From Thermoanaerobaculia bacterium (GTDB taxonomy: Bacteria; Acidobacteriota; Thermoanaerobaculia; Multivoradales; Multivoraceae): a DNA stretch of 64,000 nucleotides. The stretch is from assembly GCA_963666565.1 (NCBI GenBank), contig OY762911.1:1376001-1440000 (forward strand), in the 5' to 3' direction. The translations under genes and the position numbers were made by a program. This document shows, in pieces, positions 12,524 through 57,448 of the stretch; within the stretch, counting starts at the first letter, position 1; each line of letters starts with the position of its first letter. The notes below the pieces were generated by a model that was given only the letters and a program-made list of their open reading frames with translations, did no database searches and was not told where the DNA came from.

Positions 12524-14110
<1,587 letters not shown>

Positions 14111-40119: not shown

Positions 40120-40262
40120 GACCGCAGTATCGCACCACAAAGTTGCGCTCGGACGCCGTACCAGGGCTCGCCACTACGCGGCATCGCGCTACAGCCGGCC
40201 AGAAGGCCGGCTCACCGGCACTCGGACAGCGATCGGATGCCGCCACGCACCGATGATGTCCA

Positions 40263-40441
40263 GCCCGCAGCGGGTCCGAGGGGGGAGGGCCCCAGCGGGC
40301 TCGGAGCGAGCGACTTCCGGTGACCTGACCGTAGGCACCGACCACCCGAAGCGAGCGGAGTGAAGTGAACGCCAGCTTTCCCCTCTTCCGAGAAGGCGTG
40401 AACGTCCGGTGGGACCCTCCCCCCTCGGACCCGCTGCGGGC
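40263..40441. repeat. 31-bp inverted repeat pair (MITE/REPIN-like)
   Basis: GCCCGCAGCGGGTCCGAGGGGGGAGGGCCCC (40263-40293) versus reverse complement of 40411-40441; one mismatch. Confidence 0.8.
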
Positions 40442-40468
40442 GGGTGCTACCGACGCGTCGCCGCGGCG

Positions 40469-40918: not shown

Positions 40919-40940
40919 CTGAGCCTCCTCCTGCTCGCTT

Positions 40941-42056: not shown

Positions 42057-42082
42057 GAAGTTGGTGGCGCGCGACGGACCGT

Positions 42083-43129
42083 TCAGAGCCGGCGCTTCGC
42101 GCCGGATGCCGGCGGGGACGCCGGCGCACCAAGTTTCTGCCCTGCGAGCTCCCAGCTCGGCGGCAACTGCGTCTCAAGCAACGCCTCGCTGGCCCGCCAC
42201 AACCTGGCGCCGTTGGCCGGGTCCGCGGCGTGCCGGGACGGCCGCTTCTCGCGCAGCATGTGCAGGTAGATGCCGCTGCGCTTGCCGGCCTCGCCGGCGC
42301 AGCACAGGTAGCTCACGGGCCGGGCGGCCTTCTCCGGCGTCAGGAAGAACAGCTTCATCATCGGGACCACGAGCGGCTTGAGGAACCACGGCGCATCCCG
42401 CGCGATCGCCGTGTTCACGGGGCCGGGACAGAGCGAATGGACGACCACGTGCTCTTCGCCGTCGCGGTTCAGGCGCCGCGATAGCTCGGTCGCGTAGGTG
42501 CAGACGACGAGCTTGCTCGCGCCGTAGTGCCGGATCCCGTCCCGGACGCCGTAGTCCGTGAACTCGCCGAAGCGGTCGAAGTCGATCGGCTCGGCGGAGC
42601 GGTGCGCGTCGGAGGAGACGAGGACGATCCGGGGCGCCTCTTCGATCCGGGTCGCCGGGCGGACCGTTCCGTCCTTCAGCCAGCGATCCACCAGGACCCG
42701 GTTGGCCAGGAAGTGGACGGCGAACATCGTCTCGAAGCCCTGCGGCGTCCGGCGGGCGCGGCGCGGCACGACGCCGGCGTTGAGGATCGCGATGTCGAGC
42801 CGGGCGTCCCGTTCGCGCAGTTCGTCGCAGAGCGCATGTACCGAGCGCAGGTCGGAGAGGTCGACCCGAAGCATCTCGACCCGGTCGGAACCGGAGGCGT
42901 CCCTGACCTCTTCGCCGGCCTCGGGGTGGCCGCTCCGGCAGGCCATCAGGACGTGGCCGCCGCGCCTGGCGAGGTCGATGGCGACGGCCTTGCCGAGACC
43001 GCTGTTGGCCCCGGTCACCAGGCAGGTCCTGCCGTCGATCCGAACGGAATCGGCAAGCGGCTCGATCTCCGGCCGCTCGGCCGCCCGGTCCCGGACCGCC
43101 TTGCGGAGCACCTTGAAGAGCTTCTTCAT
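42083..43129 (-). CDS. SDR oxidoreductase (retinol dehydrogenase-like)
   Basis: VTGANSGLG, VDLSDL.SV, LNAG, YGASKL, CPGPVNT; C-terminal tail derived from the REP-like element. Confidence 0.9.
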   Translation of the reverse strand: MKKLFKVLRKAVRDRAAERPEIEPLADSVRIDGRTCLVTGANSGLGKAVAIDLARRGGHVLMACRSGHPEAGEEVRDASGSDRVEMLRVDLSDLRSVHALCDELRERDARLDIAILNAGVVPRRARRTPQGFETMFAVHFLANRVLVDRWLKDGTVRPATRIEEAPRIVLVSSDAHRSAEPIDFDRFGEFTDYGVRDGIRHYGASKLVVCTYATELSRRLNRDGEEHVVVHSLCPGPVNTAIARDAPWFLKPLVVPMMKLFFLTPEKAARPVSYLCCAGEAGKRSGIYLHMLREKRPSRHAADPANGARLWRASEALLETQLPPSWELAGQKLGAPASPPASGAKRRL

Positions 43130-43186
43130 GCGAGGTCGTCGCGCGGCCGGGAAAGCGGAAGAGCTCGACGGGCGCGGGGCGCGAGC

Positions 43187-44566
43187 TTACTCGCGCGGGA
43201 TGCCGTGGCGCTTCCGGTAGGCCGCCATGCGCGTCTCGATGGCCTCGCGGCTCAGTCCGAAGCTCTCCGGTTCGTAGACGTGCCGCCCGTAGCGGTGCTG
43301 CACGTTGCGGCTCGCGGTCCGCTCGGCGGCTCGGAGCGCGTCCGGTCCGAAGGGGATGCCGGTCCGCTCGCAGACCTGGTGCAGCACCGCCATCGGTTCG
43401 CGGACCAGGTCGTAGTAGGAGACGTCGACGAACCGCCGCGGATCCGCGGACGCCCGGACGCTCGCGGCGCGCTCGACCAGGCGGCACGTCTTGGCGAACC
43501 AGTGCGCGCCGATCTCCCGCGAGTCGACCCGGTCGCTGAACAGTCCGCGGGCGTGCGCGACCATGCTGCAGAAGGAGGGGATGGACTTCCGCGGATCGCG
43601 GTGGGTGCGAACGATCGTGGCGGTCGGGAAGACGTCGAGAGCGACGTCCAGGTACTCCATGTGATGCGGCGTCTTGAGCACCCAGTGAAGGCGAGGCCGT
43701 TGCCATTGCAGGATCTGGAGCAGGGTGCGGAACTCCTCGTATGCGCGTGCATGGTCCGGCCAGGATCTGCCTGAGGGGGCTTGTGTGCGGGTGGCCTCGT
43801 ACGCGCGCGCATGGTCCCGGCTTGATGCCGGCGGGGACGCGGGCGCGCCCTGGGCCTCGTGCGCGTGCGTACGATCCCGGCCTTCCAGCCAGCGGGCGTA
43901 GGCGGGCACGTGCATCGTCGCCTCCGCCGACTGGCTCATGAAGGACACGTCGAGCAGCAGCACGTCCTCCTCCGGTGCGTCGTGTTCGGCGGGATGGACG
44001 GCGAAGAAGGCGGGCGCCAGGTAGGCGACGGCCCGCTCGGCGATCAGGGCCTGCCGGATCCGGGCGTGAGGATCGCCCGGTTCCTCGCGCGGCAGGGGCA
44101 GCGGGTTCAGACCCTCCCAGGCCGCGATGGCGCGCATCTCCGGGAGCGAGGCGAGCAACCGGTGCAACGTGGTGGTGCCGGTCCGCTGCAGGCCGGCGAT
44201 GAGGACGATCGGGCCGAGTTCGATGTCCCGAATCTCCGGCCGGCGGCGGAGGAGTTCCTCGACCCGCAGGCGCGTCGCCAGCGCTCCCTCGATCCGCCGC
44301 CGCTGGATCAGCCGGCCGAGGAGCGTGAGGTCGGCTTCCTCGTCGATGGAGCGGACGAGGACGGAGAGCGGTTCCATGAACCAGTCGTCGCCGAAGCTGG
44401 ACAGGCCGGTCTTCCTTCGGGCCTTCGCGACCATCGAGTCGACGTCGAGCCGCCCGCTTGCGCCGAGGCGTCCCGCGGCGCGACCGGCCGCGTTCAACAG
44501 CGCGACGGGGAGCGGCCGGTAGGGCCGCTCGTAGTCGGTCGGCGTCTCGCTTACCCGCTTCGCCAT
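43187..44566 (-). CDS. Sulfotransferase (Sulfotransfer_3 / Stf-like)
   Basis: PAPS-binding GLQRTGTT.LH.LL, WVLKTP.H, THRDP....S..S, Y.DLV..P; 40-aa tandem-duplication insertion. Confidence 0.9.
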   Translation of the reverse strand: MAKRVSETPTDYERPYRPLPVALLNAAGRAAGRLGASGRLDVDSMVAKARRKTGLSSFGDDWFMEPLSVLVRSIDEEADLTLLGRLIQRRRIEGALATRLRVEELLRRRPEIRDIELGPIVLIAGLQRTGTTTLHRLLASLPEMRAIAAWEGLNPLPLPREEPGDPHARIRQALIAERAVAYLAPAFFAVHPAEHDAPEEDVLLLDVSFMSQSAEATMHVPAYARWLEGRDRTHAHEAQGAPASPPASSRDHARAYEATRTQAPSGRSWPDHARAYEEFRTLLQILQWQRPRLHWVLKTPHHMEYLDVALDVFPTATIVRTHRDPRKSIPSFCSMVAHARGLFSDRVDSREIGAHWFAKTCRLVERAASVRASADPRRFVDVSYYDLVREPMAVLHQVCERTGIPFGPDALRAAERTASRNVQHRYGRHVYEPESFGLSREAIETRMAAYRKRHGIPRE

Positions 44567-44621
44567 CGGTCCGAGCCGTGGCCGGCGCATCCAGCAGGGC
44601 GGAACCCGGTCCGGCGCACGG

Positions 44622-45815
44622 TCAACCGCGGGAAGCCTTCAGGTCGGCCAGCTTGACGACCCGGGTCGCCGGCTCCGGGTGCTCCTCGGCGCGGATCCAC
44701 CGGAAGCACATGGTCCCCGAGGAGTGGCCGGCCGTGTCGAGCCAGTTCGGGAATCCGGGATCCTCGTGTGCTACCACCAAGCGCACGGAACCGTCGGGCT
44801 CGTACTCCGCCAGATGCTTGTTCGTGTGGATCGTGTGGTAGCGGTAGTCCAGCGACTCCATCCAGTAGTTGTTGAGCTGGAAGTTCCAGTGCTCGCATTC
44901 CGGCGGCGTGGCCTCGATGACCAGCGCCTCGTCCTCGGCCAGCCGCCAGTGCGAGTGGTAGTAGGCGATGTTCGGGTCGCCGCCGGCCTGGTTCGACGTC
45001 TCCTGGTCGAAGCGGGGCAGCCTGTTCGAGTGCTTCTGGAAGTCGCGCGCCCACTTCGCGAACAGGAGCGAGGCGCCGGCGACCAGGGTGCTCGCCGAGC
45101 GCAGCCCCTCGTCGACCTGGGCCGGCGTCAGGGGCGCCGGACGCTTCTCTTCAGGAGCGCAGTCGATCCGCTCGATGCGGAGCTCGGCCGGGACCTCCGT
45201 TCGCCGGTCGAGAAAGGTCTGGCGCACGATGAGCATGCCCGTGTCGGGCTTCATCGGCAGCCAGTTGCCCTCCTGCTGTTCGCAACTGAGGATCAGCTCG
45301 AATCCGCCCTCGTCGTCCATCTCGAGTTCCGCGGCCTCGACGTAACCGGTCGGCGGCAGGCCGCCGCCCTGGCCGTAGTGGCCGGCCTGGGTGCCGAAGC
45401 CGAGGTAGGCGACCGTGTTGCGGCGTCCGACGATCCGGTACTCGTACTCGCCCGAGAGCGCGGCCGTCAGGTAGTGGTTGTCCGGGTTGTCGGCGCCGAG
45501 CTTGACCGTCTCGTGCGCGACCCGGTGAAGGACCGGCGCCCGCGGGTCGGCGTGCTCGACGAAGGCCATCAGGCCGGCGCGCGCCAGCCGGCTGAGATAG
45601 CGGTAGCCCTCGGCCTGGTTGAAGGCGTCGCGCGGCGTTCCCGGGAAGTTCAGCGACGCGCCGGCGGCCTTCAAGGTGTCGCAGAACTCGTCCCAGGCGC
45701 GGCCGGAGACCACCCGCTGCGCCGCGACATCGTCCTCGGACTGGCCGCGGAGCTTCCGGATCGCCAGCGATACACGGCGAAACAGCGCAAGCAGGGCGAT
45801 CGCGAGCTTTCTCAT
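44622..45815 (-). CDS. DUF1214-like protein
   Basis: AEGYRYL.R, DNPD..Y, EY.I.G.R, W.L..DEALVI, WNFQL.N.W.ESLDY, VVAH.DPG.PNWLDT.GH..G...RW. Confidence 0.85.
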   Translation of the reverse strand: MRKLAIALLALFRRVSLAIRKLRGQSEDDVAAQRVVSGRAWDEFCDTLKAAGASLNFPGTPRDAFNQAEGYRYLSRLARAGLMAFVEHADPRAPVLHRVAHETVKLGADNPDNHYLTAALSGEYEYRIVGRRNTVAYLGFGTQAGHYGQGGGLPPTGYVEAAELEMDDEGGFELILSCEQQEGNWLPMKPDTGMLIVRQTFLDRRTEVPAELRIERIDCAPEEKRPAPLTPAQVDEGLRSASTLVAGASLLFAKWARDFQKHSNRLPRFDQETSNQAGGDPNIAYYHSHWRLAEDEALVIEATPPECEHWNFQLNNYWMESLDYRYHTIHTNKHLAEYEPDGSVRLVVAHEDPGFPNWLDTAGHSSGTMCFRWIRAEEHPEPATRVVKLADLKASRG

Positions 45816-45832
45816 CGTTCCTTCTCCCGCCG

Positions 45833-46306
45833 TCAGTCGGCGGGACCGACCGGCGTGCCGTAGGGAACCGGCGGTTCGCGCTCGTGCGTCGGGCCGAGGG
45901 CAACGATGCGCCAGCGTCCGCGGAAGACGCGCAGGTCGAGGTCCTGCGTCTCGTAGCTCGCTTCCCGCACGTACTCGACGTCGAGCCGCACGGTGTCGCC
46001 CAGGTCCTCCTTGCCGGTCACGGCGACCCCCTTGAGGCCGGCGACGCGCTGGCGGAGGTACTGCCGGAAGGCGGCATCCCCCATCTCGTCGCGCACCGTC
46101 TCCAGTTGTTCGCGGACCTCGCCGGTGAAGAGGTCGAGGTAGGCACCGGCCTCTCCCTCGCGGCTGACGTCGATCATCTGCCAGAAGACGTCGCTCGGAT
46201 CGCCCGCATCCGTCCCGCGCTCCGGCAGCCGGTCGCGCAGCGCCGCGAGCAGGCCGGCCGCGAGCACCGCGACGGTCAGCGCGGTCGCGCCCAGGTTGCG
46301 GCTCAT
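45833..46306 (-). CDS. Small membrane-anchored hypothetical protein (NTF2/DUF4878-like fold suspected)
   Basis: N-terminal TM; AYLDLFTG, GRWRIV; starts 2 nt after the hflK stop. Confidence 0.7.
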   Translation of the reverse strand: MSRNLGATALTVAVLAAGLLAALRDRLPERGTDAGDPSDVFWQMIDVSREGEAGAYLDLFTGEVREQLETVRDEMGDAAFRQYLRQRVAGLKGVAVTGKEDLGDTVRLDVEYVREASYETQDLDLRVFRGRWRIVALGPTHEREPPVPYGTPVGPAD

Positions 46307-46308
46307 CT

Positions 46309-47241
46309 TCACGGCTGGCCGTTCGCCCCGGGCGTCAGCTCCCGGCGGAGGAAGTCGATGTCGATCGTGCTCTGGCCGGGCTCCAGGATCGTCTTCCGCA
46401 TGCGGGGAAGGACCCGCTCCATCGTCTCGAGATAGGTGCGCGTGCGGATCTCGGCGCGCGCCCCCTGGTCGGCGTTCGCGATCGAGCGGAACCGGTCGGC
46501 TTCGCCGGTCGCCCGCTCGACTTCGGCGGTGCGGAAGCTCTCGGCTTCGGCCGTGAGGGCGCGCGCTTGGCCCCGCGCCACCGGCACGACCTCGTTGCGG
46601 TAGCTCTCGGCCTCGCGGATCAGCCGGTCGCGGTCCTCGCGCGCGCTGGCGACGTCGTTGAACGCCTCCCGCACGAGACTCGGCGGGCTGACGCCCTCGA
46701 GGCTCGCGGAGAGGACGGTGACGCCGGTCCCGAAACGATCGAACAGCTCCTGCGAGGCGGCCTGGACGCTCTGCTGCACCGCGACCTTGCCGGTCGTCAG
46801 CAGCTCGTCGACGCCCATGCCGGCGACCACTTGGAGCAGGGCGCTGCGCCCGCTGGTCTCGAGCAGCGAGTCTGTGTCCGCGAAGCGCAGCGAGTAGGCA
46901 AGCGGATCGTGGATCGCGTAGAGGACGACGAGCCGCACGTGGACGACGTTGCGGTCGCCGGTCAGCCAGCGCGCCTCGGCCGGCGTCGCGTCGCCGCCCA
47001 GCACGCGGTCGGCCGCGGCGAAGCCGAGGGTCAGCCGCTTCGCTTCGCGCACCTTCAGCTTGTCCACCCGGCCGACGGGCCGCGGCCAGTTCCAGTGCAG
47101 GCCCGGCCCCGCCGGGGTCGCGCCGGCCCGACCGAGAACGCGCACGACGGCCTCCTCGTCCGGCGCGACGAAGTAGACGCCCCAGGCCAGCCACATCAGC
47201 GCCAGGGTCAGCGCCGCGGCCGGGACGGCTCGGAACTTCAC
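46309..47241 (-). CDS. hflK: HflK-like SPFH protein
   Basis: GVYFV.PDE.AVV, GPGLHW.WP.PV, LTGD.N.V, PP..V.EAF.DV.SARED..R.I.EAE.Y.N, R.YLETME.VL. Confidence 0.88.
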   Translation of the reverse strand: MKFRAVPAAALTLALMWLAWGVYFVAPDEEAVVRVLGRAGATPAGPGLHWNWPRPVGRVDKLKVREAKRLTLGFAAADRVLGGDATPAEARWLTGDRNVVHVRLVVLYAIHDPLAYSLRFADTDSLLETSGRSALLQVVAGMGVDELLTTGKVAVQQSVQAASQELFDRFGTGVTVLSASLEGVSPPSLVREAFNDVASAREDRDRLIREAESYRNEVVPVARGQARALTAEAESFRTAEVERATGEADRFRSIANADQGARAEIRTRTYLETMERVLPRMRKTILEPGQSTIDIDFLRRELTPGANGQP

Positions 47242-47377
47242 TCGGCGGCTCCGTCCAGCCGGATCGGCGTCATCGTCGGCACGGCGGCTTGAATGGCGCG
47301 ACGCCTCACTCGGCGCCTCCGTCCAGCCACATCGGCGCCAGTGTCGGCACGGCGGCTTGGATGGCTCGGAACTTCAT
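47238..47377 (-). repeat. Two 68-bp tandem duplications of the hflC/hflK junction, each a 23-aa mini-ORF
   Basis: ATG 47377-TGA 47306 (MKFRAIQAAVPTLAPMWLDGGAE); GTG 47309-TGA 47238 (MRRRAIQAAVPTMTPIRLDGAAE); both resemble the hflK start and hflC end. Confidence 0.85.
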
Positions 47378-48444
47378 TCGGCGCCTCCGCCCAGCAGGGA
47401 GAAGAGTTCCGAGTCCGCCGACAGGATGACCGTCGTCTGGTCGTCGAGGATCGACTCGTAGGACTCGAGAGTCCGCAGGAACCGGTAGAGGGACGGGTCC
47501 TGCCGGTAGGCGTCGCCGTAGATGCCGGCCGCCTCGGCGTCGCCCTGGCCGCGGAGGATCTCGGACTCGCGGTAGGCGCCGGCGAGGATCAGTTCCCGGT
47601 CCCGGTCGGCTTCGGCGCGGATGATCATCGCCTGTTCCTCGCCCTGGGCCCGGTACTCTTTGGCGATCCGTTCGCGCTCGGCCCTCATGCGCGCGAAGAC
47701 GGACTCCAGGTTCTGCTCCGGGAAGCTCAGGCGGGTGAGTTGGACTTCGAGGATCTCGACCCCGAGCTGGGGGAGGGAGACGGCGACCGCGGACTCTCGG
47801 ACCTCGGCCGAGACCTTCTCGATCCGCAGTTTCTTCGGCTCGGTCGACACGAGTTGGGAGAGCTCCGTGCGGCCGAGCGCAGCCGCGAGGCCGGCCCAGA
47901 CCACGTCGTGAAGCCGCATCTCGGCGCCGGAGCGGTCGCCGATCGTCTCCAGGAACCGCGCCGGATCGGCGATCCGCCAGACGACCGCGGTGTCGACGAC
48001 CAGGTTCTTCTTGTCCTGGGTCAGGAACTCGGCCGGCGCCGGATCGTAGAGGAGCACCCGGTTGTCGAAGCGGAGCCGCCGGTCGATCGGCCACTTGAGC
48101 TTGAGGCCCGGCTCCTCGATCGTGCGGACCGGCTTGCCGAACCGGGTGACGATCGCGCTCTCGGTCTCCGGCACGACGAAGACGGACCGGGCCAGCGCGA
48201 CGATCGCCAGTACGGCCAGGCCGGCGTGCCACCAGGCGGTTCGGCGCGGCGAAGGCTCGTGCCCGTTGCCGCCGTCGCGAGGCTGGGCCTCGTTGTGGCG
48301 GCGCGTTCCGTCGTGGCGGTTCGCTCCGTCGTGGCGGCGTGTTCCGTCGTCGCTGTTCGCGCCGGCGGATCTGGGCGCGCGGGCATCCTTGCCCGCGTCC
48401 GCGTGGTGAGGGTCGTGGTGCTGATGATGGTCGTCGTGGGTCAT
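47374..48444 (-). CDS. hflC: HflC-like SPFH protein with His-rich N-terminus
   Basis: FVV.ETE.AIVTRFGKP, EPGL..KWP, FLT.DKKNL.VD, WRI.DP..F, RM.AERER.A..YRA.G.E, RG.GDAEA, F.RTLESY; N-terminus MTHDDHHQHHDPHH. Confidence 0.92.
   Translation of the reverse strand: MTHDDHHQHHDPHHADAGKDARAPRSAGANSDDGTRRHDGANRHDGTRRHNEAQPRDGGNGHEPSPRRTAWWHAGLAVLAIVALARSVFVVPETESAIVTRFGKPVRTIEEPGLKLKWPIDRRLRFDNRVLLYDPAPAEFLTQDKKNLVVDTAVVWRIADPARFLETIGDRSGAEMRLHDVVWAGLAAALGRTELSQLVSTEPKKLRIEKVSAEVRESAVAVSLPQLGVEILEVQLTRLSFPEQNLESVFARMRAERERIAKEYRAQGEEQAMIIRAEADRDRELILAGAYRESEILRGQGDAEAAGIYGDAYRQDPSLYRFLRTLESYESILDDQTTVILSADSELFSLLGGGAE
48371..48396 (+). repeat. REP-like element (hairpin-1 variant C) inside hflC 5' region
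   Basis: CTGGGCGC GCGGGCA TCCT TGCCCGC. Confidence 0.7.
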
Positions 48445-51400
48445 TGCTCTACCTCGTTCTGGCCCGAGCCCGGTGGAGGAACGAAGACATCGAGGAGGCG
48501 GTTCGGCGTTTCGTCGACGAAGACGAAGCGCTTGCGGCCGCCGGTCGCGTCGGTGATCAGTTTCGGTTTGCCGGCAAGCGAGCCTTCGATCGTCCGGAGC
48601 TGGAGCCGGAACCGGTGCAGGTCGTTCGCACGCCGGTAGGCTGCGGCGCGCAGCGCGAAGCGTTCGCTCTCGCCGCGGCCGGCCTCTACGCGCCGGTTCC
48701 GGTAGGCCTCGGCTTCGAGGAGTTGCCGGCGCGCTTCCCCGCGGGCGATCGGCAGGCGCTCGAGCGCGTAGCCCTCGGCCTCGTCGATCAGGGTCTCCCG
48801 CTCCTCGAGCGCGCTGGCCGCGTCACGGAAGGCGTCGACGACGTCGAGCGGCGGGTGGGCGTCCTGCACGGTCGCGCTCACCACCTCGACGCCCGCGCCG
48901 AGGCTCTCGAGCATCGCTTCGAGATGCCCGTGCCAAGCGTCTTCGATGCCGTCGCGCCTGCCGGTCAGCACGTCGTCGAGTGAGTGGCCGGCGAGCACGG
49001 TGCGCAGCGACCGCTCGGCGCTCGTCTCGACCAGTCGCGCCGGATCGGCCGCGGCGAAGGCGAAGGCGGCGGTGTCGGCGACCCGGTAGTGGATCCGGGC
49101 CGCGACCTCGACCAGGTTCTCGTCGCCGGTCAGCATCAGGCGTTCGAGCGGCGGCGTCTCGTCGAAGCCGGCGTGACGCACGTTCCACTCGTAGCTCGGC
49201 GCCGCGTCGCCGTCGGCGGATGCGGCGTCTCGCGGCGAACCGACCGCCGCCATCCGCAGGCGATTCGGTTCGACGCGGGTCATCCGGTCCACCGGCCAGG
49301 GGAAGCGCCAGTGCAGGCCGGGTCCGAGTTCGCCACCGACGTGGCGGCCGAAGCGCTGCACGAGTCCGACTTCCCGGGGCTCGATCGTGCGAAGGCCGGT
49401 CGCTGCCCAGAGTGCGACCAGCGCGAACGGCGCCGCGCGCAGCAGCCGCGGTGCCGCGGACCGGATCCGCGCCGGGCTGTCTTCGAGCGCGTGTTCGAGG
49501 CGGTGGACCGCCGTGCGCCGGCCGGCGTTCCAGGCGTTCCAGCCGGCGGCCAAGCCGTCCACCGGACCCGCGAGAACCGGGAAGCGGCGCCAGCCGTGGC
49601 CCTCTCGCGCGGCCACCGCCCGCCCCTCGTAGAGGAGGCGGACGCAGTTCAGGATGACGAGCAGCGACGCCGCCTGGTGGACGATCGCCGCCGCGGCCGG
49701 GGGCAGCCAGCCGAAGGCGGCAAAGCCGACGGCGACGAAGTTGATGCCGAAGGCGAAGATCAGGATGCTGCTGCGGATGCGGGCGACGACGCGGCGGGCG
49801 TAGCGGAGCAGGGGCGCCAGATAGTCGAGCCGGTCGGGCAGCAGCACGACCTGGGCCGCCTCGGCCGAGAGGTCGGCGGCGCCGTGGCCGAATGCGGCGC
49901 CGACGGACGCGGCGGCGAGGGACGGCGCGTCGTTGATCCCGTCGCCGACCATGAGGACGTTGCGGCCGCCGCGGGAGAGCTCGCCGAGCCGGCCTACCTT
50001 GTCTTCGGGCAACAGTTCCGCCTGGACCTGGTCGATGCCGGCCCGGCGGCCGATCGTGCGTGCCGTTCCCGCGGCGTCGCCGGTCAGCATGACGATCGGA
50101 TCGACTCCGGCCTGCCGCAGGTCGGCGACGGCGCAGGTCGCTTCGTCCCGGAGCGGATCGGCGAGGGCAAGCGCGCCGCCGATCGCGCCGTCGATGGCGA
50201 CGGCCAGCCGCGTCTCGCCGCTTCCCGGAGTCGGCACGACGCTCTCGGCCACGGCTTCCATCCCGTCTTCGCCGACGACCTCCGCCAGCAACGCCTGGTT
50301 GCCGACCGCGATCTCGTGCCCGTCGACGGTGGCCGTCACGCCGCGGCCGGGATGGAGTCTGAAGCTCTCGGGCTCGGCGAGATCGAGCCGCCGCTCGCGG
50401 GCCTCGGCGACCAGCGCCCGGCCGAGCAGGTGCTCGGACGTCAGTTCGGCGCTCGCGGCGAGCCGGAGCAGGCGATTCTCGGCCATGTCGCCGGCGGGCG
50501 CGATCGCGGTCAGCGCCGGCCGTCCGCAGGTCAGCGTGCCCGTCTTGTCCAGCACGCAGGCGTCGATGCGCGACAGCGACTCGATCACGTCGCCGCCCTT
50601 GACCAGCGCGCCCTCGCGCGCCAGCCGGGCGATCGCCGAGGCCATCGCCGCCGGCGTCGCCAGCACCAGGGCGCACGGGCAGGCGACGATCAGCGCCGCC
50701 ACCGTGCGCATCATCTCGCCGGTGAAGAGGTAGATGCCGCCGGCGGCGACCAGCACCGCGGGCAGGAAGTAGCGGGCCAGCTTGTCCGCCGTGCGCACGA
50801 CCCGGGCGCGGCGGCTCTGCGCGTCCTCGATCAGGCTCGCGATCCGGGCGACGGTCGTGTCGCTGCCGGTCCGCTCGGAGCGGATGTCGAGGACGCCGTA
50901 CTCGTTCAGGCTGCCGCTCCACACCGCGTCGCCGACGGCGAGCTGGGCGGGCAGCGGCTCGCCGGTGACGCTGCTCTGGTCGACGGACGACGTGCCGCGC
51001 TCGATCGTCCCGTCCACCGGCACGCGCTCGCCGGCGAGCACGCGCACGAGGTCCCCGATCTCGACCTCGCCGAGCGCCACGAGCTCTGCGGTTTCCCCGG
51101 TGCCGTCGCGCAGCACACGCGCCTGCTCGGGCTGGCTGGCGACGAAGCCGGCGATCGCCCCCTTGGCGCGGTCGACCGTCCAGTGCTCGATGCCCTCGCC
51201 GATCAGCATGATGAACATGACCTCGGCGGCGGCGAAGTACTCGCCGATCCACACCGCGGCGCCCGCCGCGATCGCGATCGTCAGGTGCGACGAGAAGTGC
51301 CCCTGGAGCAGGTCGAGGATCGCGTGGCGGATGAGCGGATAGCCAGCGACCAGGGTGAGGACGAGCGCCAGGTCGATGCCGGCGACGGTGCGGACGACCC

Positions 51401-51536
51401 CGAGCAGGTAGAGCAGCAGCAGGACGCCGACGGCGACGCAGAGCGCGACGTAGCCGATCCGCTGCAGCAGCCCGTGGCTGTGCGAGTGGCCGTGGCCGTC
51501 GTCGTGGCCGTGAACCTGGAAATTGGGCGCGCCCAT
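48441..51536 (-). CDS. P1B-type heavy-metal ATPase fused to C-terminal HflK-like SPFH domain
   Basis: His-rich N-terminus; TGE, ACPCALVLATP, DKTGTLT, SEH, MLTGD, GDGINDAP; then TM + GLVQRFG, GPGLHWRFPWPV, MLTGDENLV, HPP.DVVDAFRD..SA.E, EAE.Y; single ORF of 1031 aa. Confidence 0.92.
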   Translation of the reverse strand: MGAPNFQVHGHDDGHGHSHSHGLLQRIGYVALCVAVGVLLLLYLLGVVRTVAGIDLALVLTLVAGYPLIRHAILDLLQGHFSSHLTIAIAAGAAVWIGEYFAAAEVMFIMLIGEGIEHWTVDRAKGAIAGFVASQPEQARVLRDGTGETAELVALGEVEIGDLVRVLAGERVPVDGTIERGTSSVDQSSVTGEPLPAQLAVGDAVWSGSLNEYGVLDIRSERTGSDTTVARIASLIEDAQSRRARVVRTADKLARYFLPAVLVAAGGIYLFTGEMMRTVAALIVACPCALVLATPAAMASAIARLAREGALVKGGDVIESLSRIDACVLDKTGTLTCGRPALTAIAPAGDMAENRLLRLAASAELTSEHLLGRALVAEARERRLDLAEPESFRLHPGRGVTATVDGHEIAVGNQALLAEVVGEDGMEAVAESVVPTPGSGETRLAVAIDGAIGGALALADPLRDEATCAVADLRQAGVDPIVMLTGDAAGTARTIGRRAGIDQVQAELLPEDKVGRLGELSRGGRNVLMVGDGINDAPSLAAASVGAAFGHGAADLSAEAAQVVLLPDRLDYLAPLLRYARRVVARIRSSILIFAFGINFVAVGFAAFGWLPPAAAAIVHQAASLLVILNCVRLLYEGRAVAAREGHGWRRFPVLAGPVDGLAAGWNAWNAGRRTAVHRLEHALEDSPARIRSAAPRLLRAAPFALVALWAATGLRTIEPREVGLVQRFGRHVGGELGPGLHWRFPWPVDRMTRVEPNRLRMAAVGSPRDAASADGDAAPSYEWNVRHAGFDETPPLERLMLTGDENLVEVAARIHYRVADTAAFAFAAADPARLVETSAERSLRTVLAGHSLDDVLTGRRDGIEDAWHGHLEAMLESLGAGVEVVSATVQDAHPPLDVVDAFRDAASALEERETLIDEAEGYALERLPIARGEARRQLLEAEAYRNRRVEAGRGESERFALRAAAYRRANDLHRFRLQLRTIEGSLAGKPKLITDATGGRKRFVFVDETPNRLLDVFVPPPGSGQNEVEQ

Positions 51537-51552
51537 CAGGAGGGTGCGGCGC

Positions 51553-52308
51553 TCACACCGCGAACAGCATGATGGCGAGGCCCGAGCCGGCGATCGCGAG
51601 GCCGCTCAGCGTGTGCGCGTGCGCGCGCAGGCCCGGGAAGCGCACGAAGTCGAGGCCGCGGTAGGCGAGCGTCACGACGCCGGCCATCGTCGCGATGGTG
51701 GTCGCGCCGAAGGCAACGGTCACCGGGACCACCGCCCACAAGCCGACCTGAAAGGCCGGCACCATGAGGATGGGGATCAGCGGCTCGCAGGGGCCGAGCA
51801 CGAAGATGACGAAGAGGCTCCAGGCGGTGAGACCGGCCACTCCGGCGGCGTTGCCGGACGGATGCTCGTGGCTTCCGGCCGCCGGATGGTCGTGCGAATG
51901 GACGAGGCCGCTTGCGTGGGCGTGGGCGTGGCGCTGCCGCCTGCGATTGCGGGCCAGCGACCAGCCGGCATAGGTAAGGCCGAAGGCGATGAGGGCCCAC
52001 GAAGCGAGGTCGCCGCGGACCGCCTCGATCGACTCGAAGACGCCGACGCGGCCCTCCATCCAATGGTGCCCTTCGCGGAGGTCCAGCCCGGTCGCGAAGA
52101 TCGCCAGCCCGATGCCGGCGCCGCCGAGCAGAACCGACGACGCGACATGCCCGCCGCCGCACAGTCCGGTGATCCACAGCGTCCGGCGCAGCGACCATCC
52201 GCGGGCCTTGCCGAGGACAACGAACGGCAGCGTGTGGTCGATGCCGATCAGCGTGTGGACGAAGCCGATGCCGACCGCGGCGCCGACCAGGACCCAGACC
52301 GCGTCCAT
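51553..52308 (-). CDS. UreH/NiCoT-like (DsbD_2-type) putative Ni/Co permease
   Basis: GFVHTLIGIDH (HX4DH), GHV.SS, His-rich loop HAHAH...HSHDH..HEH, GPCEP.IP; about 6 TM. Confidence 0.75.
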   Translation of the reverse strand: MDAVWVLVGAAVGIGFVHTLIGIDHTLPFVVLGKARGWSLRRTLWITGLCGGGHVASSVLLGGAGIGLAIFATGLDLREGHHWMEGRVGVFESIEAVRGDLASWALIAFGLTYAGWSLARNRRRQRHAHAHASGLVHSHDHPAAGSHEHPSGNAAGVAGLTAWSLFVIFVLGPCEPLIPILMVPAFQVGLWAVVPVTVAFGATTIATMAGVVTLAYRGLDFVRFPGLRAHAHTLSGLAIAGSGLAIMLFAV

Positions 52309-52417
52309 CTTCTAGGACCTCGCGCCGCAAAACGCGGCGAGGCGAGGGCCGCGGCGCGAGGTCGTGGAGAGGTGGGGGCTGGGGCCGAACATGGAGCTTG
52401 CGACAGGTTCGGCGGCG

Positions 52418-55267
52418 CTACTCGACCGTCACCCAGATCGGCGACGACCAGGCGATCTCCCTGTTCTTCTGGATCACCCGCACATAGTAGTAGTGCTCGC
52501 CGGGCTCGACGTCGCTGTCGACGAAGGTCAGGTCGACTTCCCGGTCCAGGTTCTGGCGGTTGTAGAGGAAGGTCCGGTCGCGGATGATGTCGATTTGCTC
52601 GATGCGGGCGGTGCCGATCGCCTTGACCACCAGCTCGAAACGGCCCGAGACGGCGGGGACGATGTCGCCCTGCAGGTACTCCCGGCCGTTCGCGCGCATC
52701 CGGTAGTCGAGGATGATGTTGTCCGTCGCGGCGTACGAGTGGCGCCGCTTCATCGCGTCCAGGAGGCCTTCGGTGGTGAAGTCCTCGGCGATCGTGGCGG
52801 CGTAGGAGATGTGGGTCGAGATGTGGTCGGACGCGGCCTGCACGCCCAGCTTGTAGCCCTTGGCCCAGGCGTTCCAGACGAAGCCGGCGGGCTGGAAGCC
52901 TCCCTGCTGGCCCATCGGCTTCTCCGCCGTCGGGGCGCGCGGGGCGCCCTCGTACTCCGCCGACGTGCGGTCCCCCTGGTAGATCTCGACGAGCGGTTCG
53001 ACTTCCGGGTCGTTGTCCCGCCAGTCGGTGCCCATGCCGGTGGCCGAGGTATGGGGGATCGAGATCGCGTCGTGCTCCCGGAGGTACGCGAACAGCCGCG
53101 CCGCGCCCTTCTCGTGCCGCCGTTCGGCCTCGGTGATCTCGAGGGTCGGGATGCCGCGCCGGGGCGAGAGGATGTTGCGGTGACCGTCCGGGTAGCCGAT
53201 GCTGCGCTCGTAGGTGTAGACCGGCACGAAGCTTCCCGGCAGGCGGAAGATGTCGGCGATCTGCGGGTGCAGCCAGTTGACGTACTCGATGTCCTGGCCG
53301 CCCCGGTTGTTGTGCTCGCTGACGCCGAGGAAGTCGAGCTCGGCGGCGTCCAGAGCGTAGCGGTAGGCCTCCATCAGCGAGCCGTCGTTCAGGCCGTCGT
53401 GCGAGAACTCCGTGTGGCGGTGGGTGTCGCCCCGGTAGATGCGGTAGGTGCGGCCCTCCGACTCGATCGTGTACGCCCGGATGCGGGCGACGTCCTCGGC
53501 CTCGTTGGGATGGACCGGGTAGGTGTGGTACTCGCGGACGTCGGGGTCGACGAGCCGGGGCGGCGCGGCTTCGCCGGTCAGTGCGGGCAGTCTCGCCGCG
53601 TTGATCGAGGAGTGCTCGAAGAGGTACTCCTCGGAGTCGCGGTTGTCCGTCGGCCAGGCCGCGAACAGGTTGCCGCGGCCGTCGGCGGCCAGTTCCCAGC
53701 GCACGTCCTGGCGGCCGCGGCTGAAGGGCAAGTGGAGCGGCCGCGTCCATTCGCCGCCGGCGTAGGCGGTGCCGAAGATCTGCCAGGCGGCGCGGTGAGC
53801 GGGCGTGAAGTCCGGCGTGTCGCGGGCCCGGATCGTGCGGTGGCGGAAGAAGAGCCACATCCGGCCGTCGCCGTCGGCCTGGAGCACGGGCAGGTCGTTG
53901 AAGCCGGGGATGTACTCGGGAAGTTCGCGCTCGAGCGTCTCGTTCACGTCGGCCGCGGGAACCTGCCAGCGGCCGCCGTCCCACACCGCCACGGCCAGCG
54001 TGCGCCATTCGTAGAGGCGGGTCGCCTCCTTGTAGATCTCGAAGCCGGAGTCCTTGCCCCACTGGAAGCCGCTCTCGTTCCAGGCCGCCCAGAGGCGGTC
54101 CCGGGAGTCGCACGCGACCGAGACGTGGGCCTCGAACTTCGGCGTGCCGGCGACCGGCGCGACGTCCCCCCAGGCGCCGTCCGCGAAGCGCCGCGTCAGC
54201 ACGTCGTAGTTGCCCCGGTCGTAGGTGTCCCAGGCGACGTGGACGGAACCGTCGCCGCAGGCCGCGACCGCCGGCGTCCAGTCGTTGGCGGGAGAGGCCG
54301 AGACGGTTTCCTCGGCCGACCAGCGCGAGCCGTCGTGGCGGCGGGCGAGGATGTCCGAGCGGCCGCCGCGGAAGCCCTGCCAGACGAGCCAGAGGTTGCC
54401 TTCGGCGTCGGTGGCGAGTTCGTGCTCGATGTCCGCCTGGGGCGCCGAGGTCAGGCGTTCCGTCGCCGACCAGACGCCGTCGTCGGCGTTCTCCAGGTAG
54501 CGGCCGTAGAGGTCGAAGTTGCCGTCCGCCTGCTCGGACCAGACCGCCCAGAGCCGTCCCCGGCCGTCGCGCCCGAGCTTCGGCATCAGGCGATCGCCCG
54601 GTTCGCCGGTCACGGCGACGGCCGGTTGCCAGGTCGAACCGTCGAAGCGGCGGGCCACGATGGAAACGCCGCCGTCCCGGTAGGCGGTCCAGGCGGCCCA
54701 GACTTCGCCGTCCTCGCCGCTCGTCATCGTCGCGAAGTCGCTCTCATGGTCCGGCGACGACAGCGGTTCGGCCGGCGCGACCCGGTCGGCCAGTACGGCG
54801 CCGTCGAGGAATGCGAGTTCCTCGCCGACCCGGAGGTCGTGCGGCCGCAGGTCGAAGTCGCCGCGAAGAGTCGAGAAGGCGAGCCGGGTCCCCGACCGGG
54901 CCGCGACATCGACGACGACTCCCGGGTGGTGGAGGTAGGTCACCGTGCCCTTCGGGTCCTCCCACTGGTAGACCCGCCGCGGGTAGTTCATCCCCGGCCT
55001 GGTTGCCATCGTCCAGCTCGCGCCGTCGACTGACTCCGACGGGTGAACGCTCCAGTTCCGCAGAGCCAGCAGGTCGCCGCCCGAGACCTCGACCGAGCCG
55101 TCCCAGGACCGCGGCTCCGTGTCGGTGATCCCGAAACGGACTCGCACGGAGACGACGTCGTCGCCCGTGAGAGGAGGAACCGCCTGTGCGGCGAGCGTCC
55201 CGGTCAGGAGGAGAGTGCAGGCTAGACCGCTGACGGCGGCATGGAGCAGGGCGGGTCTTCGGGCCAT
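52418..55267 (-). CDS. Large secreted protein: N-terminal beta-propeller-like repeats plus C-terminal DUF3604/PHP-like domain
   Basis: Signal peptide; W.(A/V)W repeats; GDTHRHT..S.DG, LDF..VSEH, GHRN, IPHT, LVEIYQG, ASDH, YYYVRV.Q...AWSSPIWV. Confidence 0.78.
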   Translation of the reverse strand: MARRPALLHAAVSGLACTLLLTGTLAAQAVPPLTGDDVVSVRVRFGITDTEPRSWDGSVEVSGGDLLALRNWSVHPSESVDGASWTMATRPGMNYPRRVYQWEDPKGTVTYLHHPGVVVDVAARSGTRLAFSTLRGDFDLRPHDLRVGEELAFLDGAVLADRVAPAEPLSSPDHESDFATMTSGEDGEVWAAWTAYRDGGVSIVARRFDGSTWQPAVAVTGEPGDRLMPKLGRDGRGRLWAVWSEQADGNFDLYGRYLENADDGVWSATERLTSAPQADIEHELATDAEGNLWLVWQGFRGGRSDILARRHDGSRWSAEETVSASPANDWTPAVAACGDGSVHVAWDTYDRGNYDVLTRRFADGAWGDVAPVAGTPKFEAHVSVACDSRDRLWAAWNESGFQWGKDSGFEIYKEATRLYEWRTLAVAVWDGGRWQVPAADVNETLERELPEYIPGFNDLPVLQADGDGRMWLFFRHRTIRARDTPDFTPAHRAAWQIFGTAYAGGEWTRPLHLPFSRGRQDVRWELAADGRGNLFAAWPTDNRDSEEYLFEHSSINAARLPALTGEAAPPRLVDPDVREYHTYPVHPNEAEDVARIRAYTIESEGRTYRIYRGDTHRHTEFSHDGLNDGSLMEAYRYALDAAELDFLGVSEHNNRGGQDIEYVNWLHPQIADIFRLPGSFVPVYTYERSIGYPDGHRNILSPRRGIPTLEITEAERRHEKGAARLFAYLREHDAISIPHTSATGMGTDWRDNDPEVEPLVEIYQGDRTSAEYEGAPRAPTAEKPMGQQGGFQPAGFVWNAWAKGYKLGVQAASDHISTHISYAATIAEDFTTEGLLDAMKRRHSYAATDNIILDYRMRANGREYLQGDIVPAVSGRFELVVKAIGTARIEQIDIIRDRTFLYNRQNLDREVDLTFVDSDVEPGEHYYYVRVIQKNREIAWSSPIWVTVE

Positions 55268-55352
55268 GGCTCCTCCAAACGAGGCCAACAGGAACGAGGT
55301 TAGCGGTTCATCCTAGCGAGGAGTCTGCGCCGCACAACGTCGACGGTCCAGA

Positions 55353-55430
55353 CTGGGTGCGCGGGTCTTCTGACCCGCTGCCGCCGAAGGCGGCCGTAAG
55401 ACCGCGCCGGCCGCAAAGGCCGGCTCCGCT
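55353..55430 (+). repeat. REP-like three-hairpin element copy
   Basis: CTGGGTGCGCGGGTCTTCTGACCCGC-T-GCCGCC-GAA-GGCGGC...GCCGGCC-GCAAA-GGCCGGC. Confidence 0.88.
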
Positions 55431-55510
55431 AGCCGCACTCGCCTTCGCCGCCGCTACACTGAGTCCATATCCGTCCGAAGGCAGAACTCACCGTCCGAAG
55501 GGAGATCGCC

Positions 55511-57448
55511 GTGCAGCGACTGGCCGTTTCGATCCTGACCCTGGCCGCACTCGTGGCGTTCGGCTGCGCCACCGACGACTCCGCCGACCCGGCCGCGACC
55601 CCGGCCGGCGACATCGCGCAAGGCACCGGCAACCCGGCCGACCGCCAGGCCTTCTACGGCGACCTGCACGTCCACACGAAGTACTCCTACGACGCCTTCG
55701 TGTTCGCGACCCGCGCCGGACCGGACGAGGCCTACGAGTTCGCCAAAGGGAACCCGATCGAGCACCCGGCCGGGTTCGAACTGAAGCTCGACCGGCCGCT
55801 CGATTTCCAGGGCGTCTCGGACCACGCGAACTATCTCGGCATGCTGCCGGCGATGGTCGACCCCGACCAGCCAGCCTACAATCACCCTGCGGCCGAGACG
55901 GTGCGGAACGCCGAAACCGTCCAGGAGCGGCGAGGCATCTTCGCCGCCTTGCAGCCCTACGTGCGCTACATGGCCGACGCCGATCCGAGCATCCGGGAGC
56001 ATCTCGACAAGAACGTCGTCCGTTCCGCCTGGAGCGAGATCGCGGCTTCGGCCAACCGCCACTACGAGCCGGGCGTCTTCACCACCTTCATCGCCTACGA
56101 GTACACCTCGGCCGGCGCCGGCGGCATCTACGAGAACCTGCACCGCAACGTCGTCTTCCGCGGCGCCGAGGCGCCGGACATCCCCTTCTCGCGCCTCGAC
56201 TCCTACAACCCGGAGGACCTCTGGGCGCGGATGGACGAGTGGCGAGCCGACGGCTTCGAGGCGATCGCGATCCCCCACAACACGAACGGCTCGGGCGGGC
56301 GGATGTTCGAGTACGAGTACTTCGAGGGCGGCGCCATCGACCAAGCCTACTCGGATCTCCGCAGCCGCAACGAGCCGATCGTCGAGATCACCCAGACCAA
56401 GGGGACATCCGAGACCCACCCGGCGCTGTCGCCGAACGACGAGTGGGCGGGCTTCGAGATCATGCCGTATCGGGTCTCCACGAGCATCCTGAGCGAGCCG
56501 CCCGGCAGCTACGTGCGGGACGCCTACCGCCGCGGCCTGACGATCGAGGCCGGAGGCGTGTCGAACCCGTACAAGCTCGGCGTCATCGGCTCGTCCGACA
56601 CCCACGTCGCCGCCGGCTCGTTCGACGAGGCCAACTACTGGGGCGCCTCGGGCCTGATGCAGCAGACCGCCGAGCAGCGCGGTTCGGTGCCCAGCGAACC
56701 CGCGGCCGGAGCAGACTTGCAGAACCCCACCGCCGCGGCAGAACCGATCGACGACGGGACCGGCCGCATCTACCCGTTCACGACGGCGATCACGAACGGC
56801 GCCTCGGGCCTCGCCGCGGTCTGGGCCGACGCCAACACCCGCGAGGCGATCTTCGACGCCATGCGCCGCAAGGAGACGTTCGCCACCAGCGGTACTCGCA
56901 TGAAGGTTCGCTTCTTCGGCGGTGCCGGACTGGGCGACCTCGACCTCGACGACCCGGAATTGGTCGCCGCGGCATACGAGGCCGGCGTCCCGATGGGCGG
57001 CGACCTCACCGGCGACGACGACGACGAGGCGCCGAGCTTCCTCGTCTGGGCAATGCAGGACACGATGGCCGCATCGCTCCAGCGCGTCCAGATCGTCAAG
57101 GGCTGGGAATCCGGCGGCGAGACGGCGGAGATGGTCTACGACGTCGCCTGTTCAGACGGCCTCGAGGTCGATCCGGCAACCAACCGCTGCCCCGACAACG
57201 GCGCCACCGTCGACCTCAACGACTGCTCAACCAGCGCCGACGTCGGTGCCGCCGAACTCAAGACGATCTGGACCGACCCCGACTTCGACCCGGACCAGCG
57301 CGCCTTCTACTACGCGCGGGTGCTGGAGAACCCGACCTGCCGCTGGTCGTCCTGGGACGCACTGCGAGCCGGTACCGCGCCGCGCCAGGACTTCCCGGCA
57401 ACCATCCAGGAACGCGCCTGGTCGTCGCCCATCTGGTACACCCCCTGA
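55511..57448 (+). CDS. DUF3604 family lipoprotein
   Basis: Lipobox AFGC; FYGDLHVHT..S.DA, PLDF..VSDH, NLHRNVVFR, IPHN.NGS.G, VEITQ.KG.SE.HP, SSDTH, QERAWSSPIWY. Confidence 0.92.
   Translation: MQRLAVSILTLAALVAFGCATDDSADPAATPAGDIAQGTGNPADRQAFYGDLHVHTKYSYDAFVFATRAGPDEAYEFAKGNPIEHPAGFELKLDRPLDFQGVSDHANYLGMLPAMVDPDQPAYNHPAAETVRNAETVQERRGIFAALQPYVRYMADADPSIREHLDKNVVRSAWSEIAASANRHYEPGVFTTFIAYEYTSAGAGGIYENLHRNVVFRGAEAPDIPFSRLDSYNPEDLWARMDEWRADGFEAIAIPHNTNGSGGRMFEYEYFEGGAIDQAYSDLRSRNEPIVEITQTKGTSETHPALSPNDEWAGFEIMPYRVSTSILSEPPGSYVRDAYRRGLTIEAGGVSNPYKLGVIGSSDTHVAAGSFDEANYWGASGLMQQTAEQRGSVPSEPAAGADLQNPTAAAEPIDDGTGRIYPFTTAITNGASGLAAVWADANTREAIFDAMRRKETFATSGTRMKVRFFGGAGLGDLDLDDPELVAAAYEAGVPMGGDLTGDDDDEAPSFLVWAMQDTMAASLQRVQIVKGWESGGETAEMVYDVACSDGLEVDPATNRCPDNGATVDLNDCSTSADVGAAELKTIWTDPDFDPDQRAFYYARVLENPTCRWSSWDALRAGTAPRQDFPATIQERAWSSPIWYTP

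Follow-up and report, generated by a model that had tools for sequence, protein, structure and literature searches.

What becomes of a metal pump whose polypeptide runs on, without a stop codon, into a subunit of a membrane scaffold? This question is raised by a 64,000-nucleotide (nt) stretch of a Thermoanaerobaculia bacterium (contig OY762911.1, positions 1,376,001 to 1,440,000 of the forward strand; G+C ~70%), called the window below. Its gene g2 encodes a P1B-type ATPase continuing into an SPFH domain of HflK type (K1), followed by genes for an HflC-type subunit (C, g3) and a free HflK-type subunit (K2, g4). With g1 and g5 they make up the five tightly spaced minus-strand genes at 45833-52308 that an earlier note, prepared from the letters of the DNA, had described; all are present and the spacings are as given there: g1 and g2 are separated by 16 nt, g2 overlaps g3 by ATGA, and 2 nt lie between g4 and g5. 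The role of SPFH cages in bacteria is a long-standing question and, to our knowledge, FtsH is the sole well-defined client of HflK/HflC. Our reading, to which we give roughly an even chance of being correct, is that the product of the locus is a metal transporter integrated in a dedicated SPFH scaffold, and that it serves the efflux of Zn-type ions.

A fused gene and its conserved neighbourhood

Three Pfam domains were found in a single frame of g2, namely E1-E2_ATPase (residues 134-307), Hydrolase (324-543) and Band_7 (717-923). The ATPase part, with a His-rich N-terminus and eight transmembrane (TM) segments, passes the P1B family model (TIGR01525, 525.8 bits versus a cut-off of 346.25), whereas the SPFH part (residues 716-998) passes the HflK model (TIGR01933, 176.5 versus 159.4) and matches the E. 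coli HflK structure 7vhp with 116.5 bits. Pfam and NCBIfam matches above their cut-offs thus bear out the proposal that a complete P1B ATPase continues in frame into an HflK-type SPFH domain.

A lost stop codon confined to this assembly, or another assembly or annotation artefact, would be the simplest explanation of such a gene. It retains hardly any probability since hundreds of independent assemblies have this in-frame architecture, with identities as low as 36%, and the domain search and neighbourhood survey that had been suggested as a check showed both a recurrent fusion and conserved co-occurrence of the genes. A search with the SPFH part, restricted to proteins of 567-1805 amino acids (aa), gave 153 matches at E <= 1e-3; among the 120 matches listed, 119 carry PF00122, PF00702 and PF01145 together (down to 36% identity) and the exception is a fragment-like protein of 645 aa. 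These fused homologues are named “FtsH protease activity modulator HflK” by NCBI and “Cu+-exporting ATPase” by JGI. With the ATPase part as phmmer query, 42 of the best 150 representatives (clusters at 50% identity) are fused proteins of 987-1301 aa, 41 of these 42 having the CPC motif. Within the Acidobacteriota 15 of 301 genomes, among them all six of the window's genus, have a K1 match that falls within an uninterrupted frame of 1000 aa or more; the tally comprises two unpublished genomes (G153 and G050), each with an unfused match only.

For the neighbourhood survey 80 loci (numbered with L) were retrieved with ATPase patterns. In 23 of them, the H-class, the sixth TM helix of the pump (M6) contains H-Q or H-N, and the 57 others are mostly CopA-like with AAMSxSS at this place. 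K1-type SPFH sequences accompany 22 of the 23 H-class pumps, HflC-type genes 21 and K2-type genes 22, and none of the three is found in the 57 other P1B loci; the H-class loci that miss SPFH genes are contig ends. Where loci were viewed open reading frame (ORF) by ORF, a single frame of 988-1117 aa spans pump and SPFH domain in 17 of 18, the remaining one (L027) having a frame break in its pump part. The fused loci belong to Thermoanaerobaculia, Bryobacterales, Terriglobia and one metagenome-assembled genome of Planctomycetia, and in 17-18 loci the order fusion-C-K2-g5 with mostly 4-nt overlaps is kept, down to ~40% identity, the Planctomycetia locus included. Across four phyla the two extra SPFH genes are co-inherited with the pump. 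As the earlier note had remarked for the window, FtsH is missing from this neighbourhood: no ftsH homologue was found in the window or in L001-L082.

The pump is not the sole transporter joined to such a scaffold. In four Acidobacteriota loci chosen from the 301-genome tally (L083-L086) a K1-type SPFH domain is fused to another transporter, and overlapping HflC and HflK2 genes follow the fused gene. The partner is an ArsP_1-type permease in L083-L085 (ArsP_1 plus Band_7), with L083, the one scored, passing the model of the SO_0444 family of Cu/Zn efflux transporters (NF033936, 358.1 > 300), and a CDF transporter in L086 (PF01545, 63 bits > 26.6). In all four loci the K1 of the window scores best on the fused gene and g4 on the last gene. 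The common downstream HflC and HflK2 genes with their overlaps therefore relate these SO_0444::HflK and CDF::HflK systems to the window, from which they differ in having a secondary transporter as client and no g5 homologue at E <= 1e-5. Thus K1 is a client-carrying subunit, and the clients known for it are metal transporters that belong to efflux families.

The earlier note had also allowed that similar unfused neighbourhoods may exist elsewhere, and they were indeed found in Verrucomicrobiota (three loci) and in Pseudomonas violetae, where four separate genes stand in the order K1long-C-K2-ATPase. K1long (624-655 aa) consists of a membrane domain of ~300 aa without Pfam match, followed by the SPFH domain. 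Its orthology with fused K1 is supported by reciprocal best tblastn scores only, not by the tree described below. The gene starts overlap in the Pseudomonas set, and pump orthologue and K1long are present in the same 71 of 121 sampled Pseudomonas genomes, ~4 kb apart. The P. violetae pump shares CPC in M4 (the fourth TM helix) and H-N in M6 with the H-class and its HflC has a His-rich tail like that of the window; in contrast with the window the genes are unfused, the SPFH genes come first, a g5 homologue is missing and K1 carries the other N-terminal membrane domain. In many Pseudomonas genomes the long HflK match is interrupted by one in-frame TAA, and in one genome (G352:C1:934934-936888) it is divided into two ORFs, first the membrane domain and then the SPFH domain. 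Accordingly, the N-terminal membrane domain is a separable module, fused in some species and split in others. In the Verrucomicrobiota loci L024, L029 and L032 the pump is followed (at ~10200-14700) by an ABC-transporter ATPase gene, Pfam-checked in L024, and two conserved genes, none of them seen in the loci of other lineages.

The pump and the SPFH subunits

In an alignment of 11 diverse fused proteins LDKTGTLT, VTGEPLP, GDGINDAP and ACPCAL (in M4) are invariant. N599 in M5, H620-Q621 in M6, the hydrophobic ninth helix and the whole SPFH and coiled-coil part are retained as well, whereas the linker is variable. Among solved structures the closest to the pump is the P1B-4 ATPase sCoaT (PDB 7qbz, 330 bits over residues 8-635), which has eight TM helices like g2 and shares the histidine of M6. 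In sCoaT this residue (H657) is described as built-in counter-ion, and the P1B-4 signature is SPC in M4 and HEGxT in M6 (PMC8880997). The g2 pump has CPC and H-Q-A-A-S instead. Since the His alone is common to both, an assignment to the P1B-4 subclass of Co/Zn/Cd exporters was rejected. The same applies to the P1B-1 subclass (Cu+ pumps, CopA), examined with the model TIGR01511 and the M6 motif MxxSS: the score of 376.5 bits is below the cut-off of 397, and CopA-like loci show AAMSxSS where the g2 class has H-Q/N. As regards P1B-2 (ZntA/CadA type, with CPC in M4, Lys in M5 and Asp in M6), CPC is present in g2 and TIGR01512 (Cd/Zn type) gives 440.4 versus a cut-off of 313.5, but in a by-eye alignment K693 (M5) and D714 (M6) of ZntA correspond to N599 and H620. 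According to the M4 signatures listed for seven published subclasses (PMC13460109, section 5) CPC points to P1B-1 or P1B-2. Because the other marks of both appear to be absent from g2, pumps with CPC in M4 and H-Q/N/E in M6, a combination that matches none of the published M4/M6 signatures compared, are treated here as a putative distinct class.

P-type ATPases end in the cytoplasm. As g2 adds one more helix behind the pump, its SPFH domain is predicted to be periplasmic, which is the topology of HflK. In the AlphaFold2 (AF2) model of full-length g2 (mean predicted local distance difference test score, pLDDT, 68.5) both modules are folded. Residues 638-688 have low confidence, a helix (656-712) leads into the SPFH domain and a long helix covers residues 897-968.

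The companions of the fused protein are true members of their families. The earlier note had identified a free HflK in g4 and an HflC with an N-terminal His cluster in g3; both identifications held, the former with 189.1 bits (TIGR01933, same cut-off as above), the latter with 217.3 versus 134.4 (TIGR01932) and the His cluster in place. A maximum-likelihood tree of 41 SPFH sequences splits HflC-type and HflK-type clades with 100/100 support and puts the canonical HflC and HflK of the genome inside the respective halves; among its supported groups are K2 of the fused systems and K1 of Acidobacteriota. Compared to the E. coli HflK/HflC-FtsH assembly (7vhp, 7wi3, 9cz1/9cz2), K1, K2 and C pass the same family models and group with the canonical pair of the genome. 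The set includes K as well as C types, and every subunit combines an N-terminal anchor with a periplasmic SPFH domain and a long helix. On the other hand there are three paralogues instead of two, one of them fused to a transporter; no FtsH is linked, a separate canonical hflKC exists, and the client would be a metal pump whereas that of E. coli is a protease.

This comparison leads to the question whether the paralogues nevertheless act via FtsH, bringing the single FtsH of the cell to the pump for turnover or quality control. Family scores above the NCBIfam cut-offs and the nesting with the canonical pair are compatible with such a role, and a lack of linkage between hflKC and ftsH is seen in E. 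coli as well. The genome (G000; 4.79 Mb, 97% complete, one contig) was inspected for the canonical genes, as the note had recommended, and both were found elsewhere: a single ftsH, and an hflK adjoining an hflC. This hflK scores higher in the family test (274.8 bits) than K1 or K2. Moreover, the lack of ftsH from the window and L001-L082, together with a covalent client that is exchanged among three transporter families, points to a transporter and not to a protease, and we regard an action via FtsH as rather improbable. The conserved fusion, the co-inherited SPFH genes, the absence of a linked FtsH and the separate canonical hflKC together make a dedicated HflK/HflC-type scaffold the best reading. 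Besides, the genome has SPFH genes of stomatin and flotillin size, each beside a small ORF read as NfeD-like by eye.

Poly-His/Asp cytoplasmic tails occur on changing subunits. They are located at the N-terminus of the pump in the window lineage, L024 and L032, on HflC in the window, L001-L004, L007, L016 and the Pseudomonas locus L082, and on HflK2 in L013, L027, L024 and L032; several loci lack any. Such shifting would be expected of subunits that work together in a single complex on the cytoplasmic side.

Assembly, metal and direction of transport

For Pseudomonas the unfused arrangement is already in print as a co-regulated cluster. In the hmtA cluster of P. aeruginosa (PA2434-PA2439) a P1B ATPase adjoins three HflK/HflC-type SPFH genes as in the window: PA2435 is the P-type ATPase importer HmtA, and PA2437, PA2438 and PA2439 are assigned to the HflC, HflC and HflK families (Pederick et al., PMC4542158). 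In a znuA mutant PA2435 and PA2437-PA2439 are reported to be induced by factors of 5.6 to 14.4, and the cluster has a weak Zur site (PMC4542158, Table 2); a 2025 proteomics preprint (PMC11761036) reports PA2435, PA2438 and PA2439 proteins to be raised in Zn-depleted cells. Hypersensitivity to Zn and Cu and their accumulation on overexpression of HmtA are described in reviews (PMC8456098, PMC10393844), the second of which calls import an “unusual characteristic” that needs confirmation and states that Zur does not bind the hmtA promoter. The SPFH genes have been studied apart from the pump. In strain PA14 three of them, PaFlo5-7, form one operon of patchy distribution, and the triple deletion was assayed for growth, motility, biofilm, oxidative stress and virulence (2026 study, PMC13086221); metal assays are not among these, and the words “ATPase” and “transporter” are absent from the text. 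Hinderhofer et al. 2009 (PMC2636767) make no mention of an ATPase. Hence the remark of the earlier note that it knew of no functional characterisation needs to be modified: according to these sources HmtA has been studied, and a deletion of the SPFH trio has been phenotyped, metal assays excepted. A fusion of an SPFH protein to a P-type ATPase was not found in the literature searched, and within it neither the fusion nor the swapping of clients nor the physical coupling that they imply has been published.

If the preferred reading of a dedicated scaffold is correct, K1, C and K2 would be made from translationally coupled genes and, by analogy with the solved E. coli HflK/HflC, would form an alternating K/C ring or cage with periplasmic SPFH domains. 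The covalent link is given by the sequence: after M6 the linker leads into the HflK anchor, so that every K1 tethers one pump to the ring. Free K2 would share the K positions and thereby dilute the pumps per ring, His-rich cytoplasmic tails may collect or buffer metal at the cytoplasmic face, and the pump would export from the cytoplasm a divalent ion of Zn type, either Zn itself or possibly Cu, Co or Ni. Of the cage that the earlier note had envisaged around the pump, the dedicated scaffold tied to it is upheld, and closure into a cage stays conjectural. The same note had taken the His-rich segments as pointing to Ni, Co or Zn. The zinc-responsive hmtA cluster and the fusion of the scaffold to transporters of the Cu/Zn efflux and CDF families favour Zn (with Cu) over Ni or Co, although His-rich tails as such would equally fit Ni or Co. 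Concerning direction we lean moderately to export, since the scaffold is fused to two efflux families and g2 is the only P1B pump of the genome.

Several points weigh against this reading. The assembly and binding of K and C subunits are predictions, the AF2 model of g2 is mediocre, monomeric and silent on oligomers, and the tree does not resolve the deep order among K1, K2 and canonical HflK. M6 has Gln where P1B-4 exporters carry an ion-binding Glu. With two CzcA-type RND pumps in the genome the ATPase is not its sole metal exporter. Finally, P. aeruginosa HmtA, the single presumed relative that has been studied, is reported to import Zn and Cu, and its cluster goes up on zinc depletion (PMC4542158, PMC11761036 and the reviews cited above), which speaks against export. 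The tie of our loci to PA2435-PA2439 consists of genus, published gene order and annotation, not of sequence comparison; in a search with the P. violetae pump the 120 matches listed all had at least 93% identity and none was named P. aeruginosa.

The monomeric model of modest quality and an assembly that is only predicted would also suit a protein that needs no cage at all, its fused SPFH domain acting in cis on its own pump as a periplasmic regulatory or lipid-sensing element, with a separate role for the HflC and HflK genes. This is very unlikely in view of the near-constant presence of C and K2 in the H-class loci with 4-nt overlaps, and of the perfect co-occurrence of pump and K1long in Pseudomonas. 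Furthermore, K and C types are both kept, as an alternating assembly of the solved type needs, and the His-rich tails shift between subunits.

A more serious alternative, though in our judgement a minority possibility, retains the scaffold and reverses the flow: the pump would be an HmtA-like importer of Zn (and Cu) under zinc shortage, with the His-rich tails accepting the metal. The induction of the Pseudomonas cluster in the znuA mutant and in Zn-depleted cells fits this, as do the hypersensitivity and metal accumulation on HmtA overexpression, and in the genome no match to a ZnuA-family binding protein was found. The Gln or Asn in place of the acidic M6 residue of exporters may be read in the same sense. 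All solved relatives, by contrast, are exporters, the M6 histidine that acts as built-in counter-ion in sCoaT is invariant here, and the K1-C-K2 trio is also fused to the CDF and SO_0444 efflux families. The genome encodes a ZIP importer; it has neither a CDF (Cation_efflux) match nor a second P1B pump such as one of CopA type. For HmtA itself the import claim “needs further analyses” according to the review PMC10393844, which also denies the binding of Zur to the promoter. In the genome of the window regulation cannot be read from a Zur box as no Fur-family match was detected there. Its metal-homeostasis inventory is unusual as a whole.

PacL proteins of Mycobacterium tuberculosis, which belong to the DUF1490 family, offer the nearest concept to a K1-C-K2 scaffold with its pump. 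In the “effluxosomes” of PacL with CtpC, CtpG and CtpV these small membrane scaffolds cluster and stabilise P1B ATPases, interacting via a GxxG motif in the TM segment, and one PacL protein has a metal-binding His/Asp tail (PMC13460109). Both systems provide scaffold proteins for P1B pumps; PacL differs by having neither a gene fusion nor HflK/HflC paralogues. The parallel suggests that scaffolds for metal pumps follow a general principle that has been arrived at more than once, and the conserved design of the locus points to bacteria surrounding their metal transporters with dedicated scaffolds or cages. A widespread fusion of an HflK paralogue to a metal pump represents Rosetta-stone evidence for a second client class of HflK/HflC, and from it a structural hypothesis follows for the trio of SPFH genes beside hmtA in Pseudomonas, hitherto unexplained. 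In addition the pump, Cu/Zn efflux permease and CDF fusions constitute a simple purifiable system in which ATPase activity or metal flux of the client can be measured with and without the scaffold.

Genes and sequence features around the core

The features discussed are compiled in Table 1.

Table 1. Positions of genes, gene parts and other features in the window
Feature	Position	Strand	Description
Genes downstream of g5	37750-45815	minus	array beginning with DUF1214 gene
g5	45833-46306	minus	157 aa, N-terminal TM anchor and predicted periplasmic NTF2-like domain
g4 (K2)	46309-47241	minus	310 aa, free HflK-type subunit
Tandem repeat	47187-47395		triplicated hflC/hflK junction
Mini-ORFs	47238-47309 and 47306-47377	minus	23 codons each
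g3 (C)	47374-48444	minus	356 aa, HflC-type, His-rich cytoplasmic N-terminal tail of ~70 aa
g2	48441-51536	minus	1031 aa, P1B ATPase::HflK fusion
g2, residues 713-1031 (K1)	48441..49400	minus	HflK-type SPFH domain, long coiled-coil helix, C-terminal tail
g2, residues 637-712	49401..49628	minus	cytoplasmic linker of ~57 aa, then ninth TM helix as HflK membrane anchor
g2, residues 1-636	49629..51536	minus	P1B ATPase module
g1	51553-52308	minus	251 aa, ~6 TM, His-rich central loop; multi-TM His-rich permease of an unnamed family near DsbD_2/NicO/TauE, lineage-specific addition
Hairpin	52318-52361		between upstream gene and g1
Upstream gene	52418..55288	minus	956-aa exported protein, propeller-like region and DUF3604 region
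Second DUF3604 gene	55511-57448	plus	full-length

g5 is the fourth conserved component of the ATPase-fused systems, being represented in 17 of the 23 H-class loci and in none of the 57 others. The membrane anchor that the earlier note had ascribed to this small protein is present as an N-terminal TM segment, its AF2 model (pLDDT 87.7) shows an NTF2-like fold (Foldseek 4ovm and 3fka, E ~1e-4), and a C-terminal PYGTP is conserved. Pfam and NCBIfam searches with g5 gave no family match, and its homologues show weak matches to DUF4878, DUF3828 and SnoaL_3. NfeD, the usual operon partner of SPFH genes, was considered as identity of g5 and dismissed because of the lack of a family match and the NTF2-like fold. 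A complex prediction for HflC (residues 70-356) and HflK2 with g5 as partner, run without controls, scored 0.01 compared to a mark of 0.32 and weighs neither for nor against such a complex.

g1 is found in four of the 23 H-class loci (none of the 57), all of them closest relatives of the window, and hence is placed outside the conserved core. The earlier note had described it as Ni/Co-permease-like with an HX4DH motif, which is the signature of NiCoT transporters. The motif proved to be H-x5-D-H (HTLIGIDH), and even at E <= 10 no Pfam or NCBIfam match was obtained, so that NiCoT/NicO (PF03824 or related) was abandoned as identity of g1. The multi-TM, His-rich nature of the protein is confirmed, whereas its relation to Ni/Co is a matter of language-model likeness and source names: language-model neighbours are “UreH-like” and DsbD_2 clusters in which the family is assigned to 12-32% of members, and homologues are named “nickel/cobalt exporter” or “sulfite exporter TauE/SafE” by JGI, some members matching PF13386.

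The co-directional array exceeds five genes, with the DUF3604/propeller gene 109 nt upstream and a DUF1214 gene 17 nt downstream. In the upstream 956-aa protein a signal peptide is combined with a propeller-like part and a DUF3604 part, the latter containing an HRH motif. Homologues accompany 13 of the 23 H-class pumps and none of the 57 others; in L002, L003, L007, L017 and L026 they immediately precede the pump or g1, at distances of 0-22 nt, and those of Bryobacterales carry Sec-type signal peptides. The only paralogue in the genome (G000:C1:1463078-1465903, 60% identity) is located ~32 kb further, just outside the window. A second, full-length DUF3604 gene diverges from the upstream gene. 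A 2026 preprint gives a predicted transition-metal site for one DUF3604 member and states that none has been reported.

From the association with this upstream gene a further reading of the scaffold can be derived, which we consider speculative and unlikely. K1-C-K2 would form a periplasmic metallation chamber and the tethered pump would feed Zn-type metal into the SPFH vault, where Sec-exported apo-enzymes could fold and take up the correct metal while competing metals are kept away. The DUF3604/propeller protein would be the candidate enzyme, and the anchored NTF2-like g5 might act as hand-over or docking factor. If true, this would reconcile export with the fact that zinc shortage induces the Pseudomonas cluster.

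Other features concern the expression and recent history of the locus. G+C at third codon positions of g1-g4 (0.91-0.94) is typical of real genes in this genome. The relay of mini-ORFs between g3 and g4 in the earlier note turned out to be real: the hflC/hflK junction is triplicated in tandem (period 68 nt, 3.1 copies, 77% matches in Tandem Repeats Finder), giving two short ORFs, each composed of the first hflK codons joined to the last hflC codons and chained by ATGA, GTGA and GTGA stop/start overlaps. Since the relatives L001-L004 have a single junction, the triplication is a local duplication that happens to keep the overlaps.

All flanking ORFs of 20 loci were clustered without revealing a conserved regulator gene, and the recurrent clusters comprise only core genes, their shadow ORFs and the DUF3604/propeller family. 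Neither a riboswitch nor another RNA family was detected by an Rfam scan of 44000-56500 at E <= 1, and a consensus scan gave no promoter-like and one terminator-like site, below the counts in shuffled sequence. Between the DUF3604/propeller gene and g1 there is a strong hairpin (-39.9 kcal/mol, z -4.2, 0 of 200 shuffles as stable), the 3' arm of which includes a GAGG positioned 9 nt ahead of the g1 ATG. It is not conserved, because only 0-3 nt separate the two genes in L002 and L003. Downstream of g5 the array continues with genes for a DUF1214 protein, a sulfotransferase, two short-chain dehydrogenases, a polyketide-cyclase-like protein and a PhoD-like phosphatase, of which only the DUF1214 gene is kept in the closest relatives.

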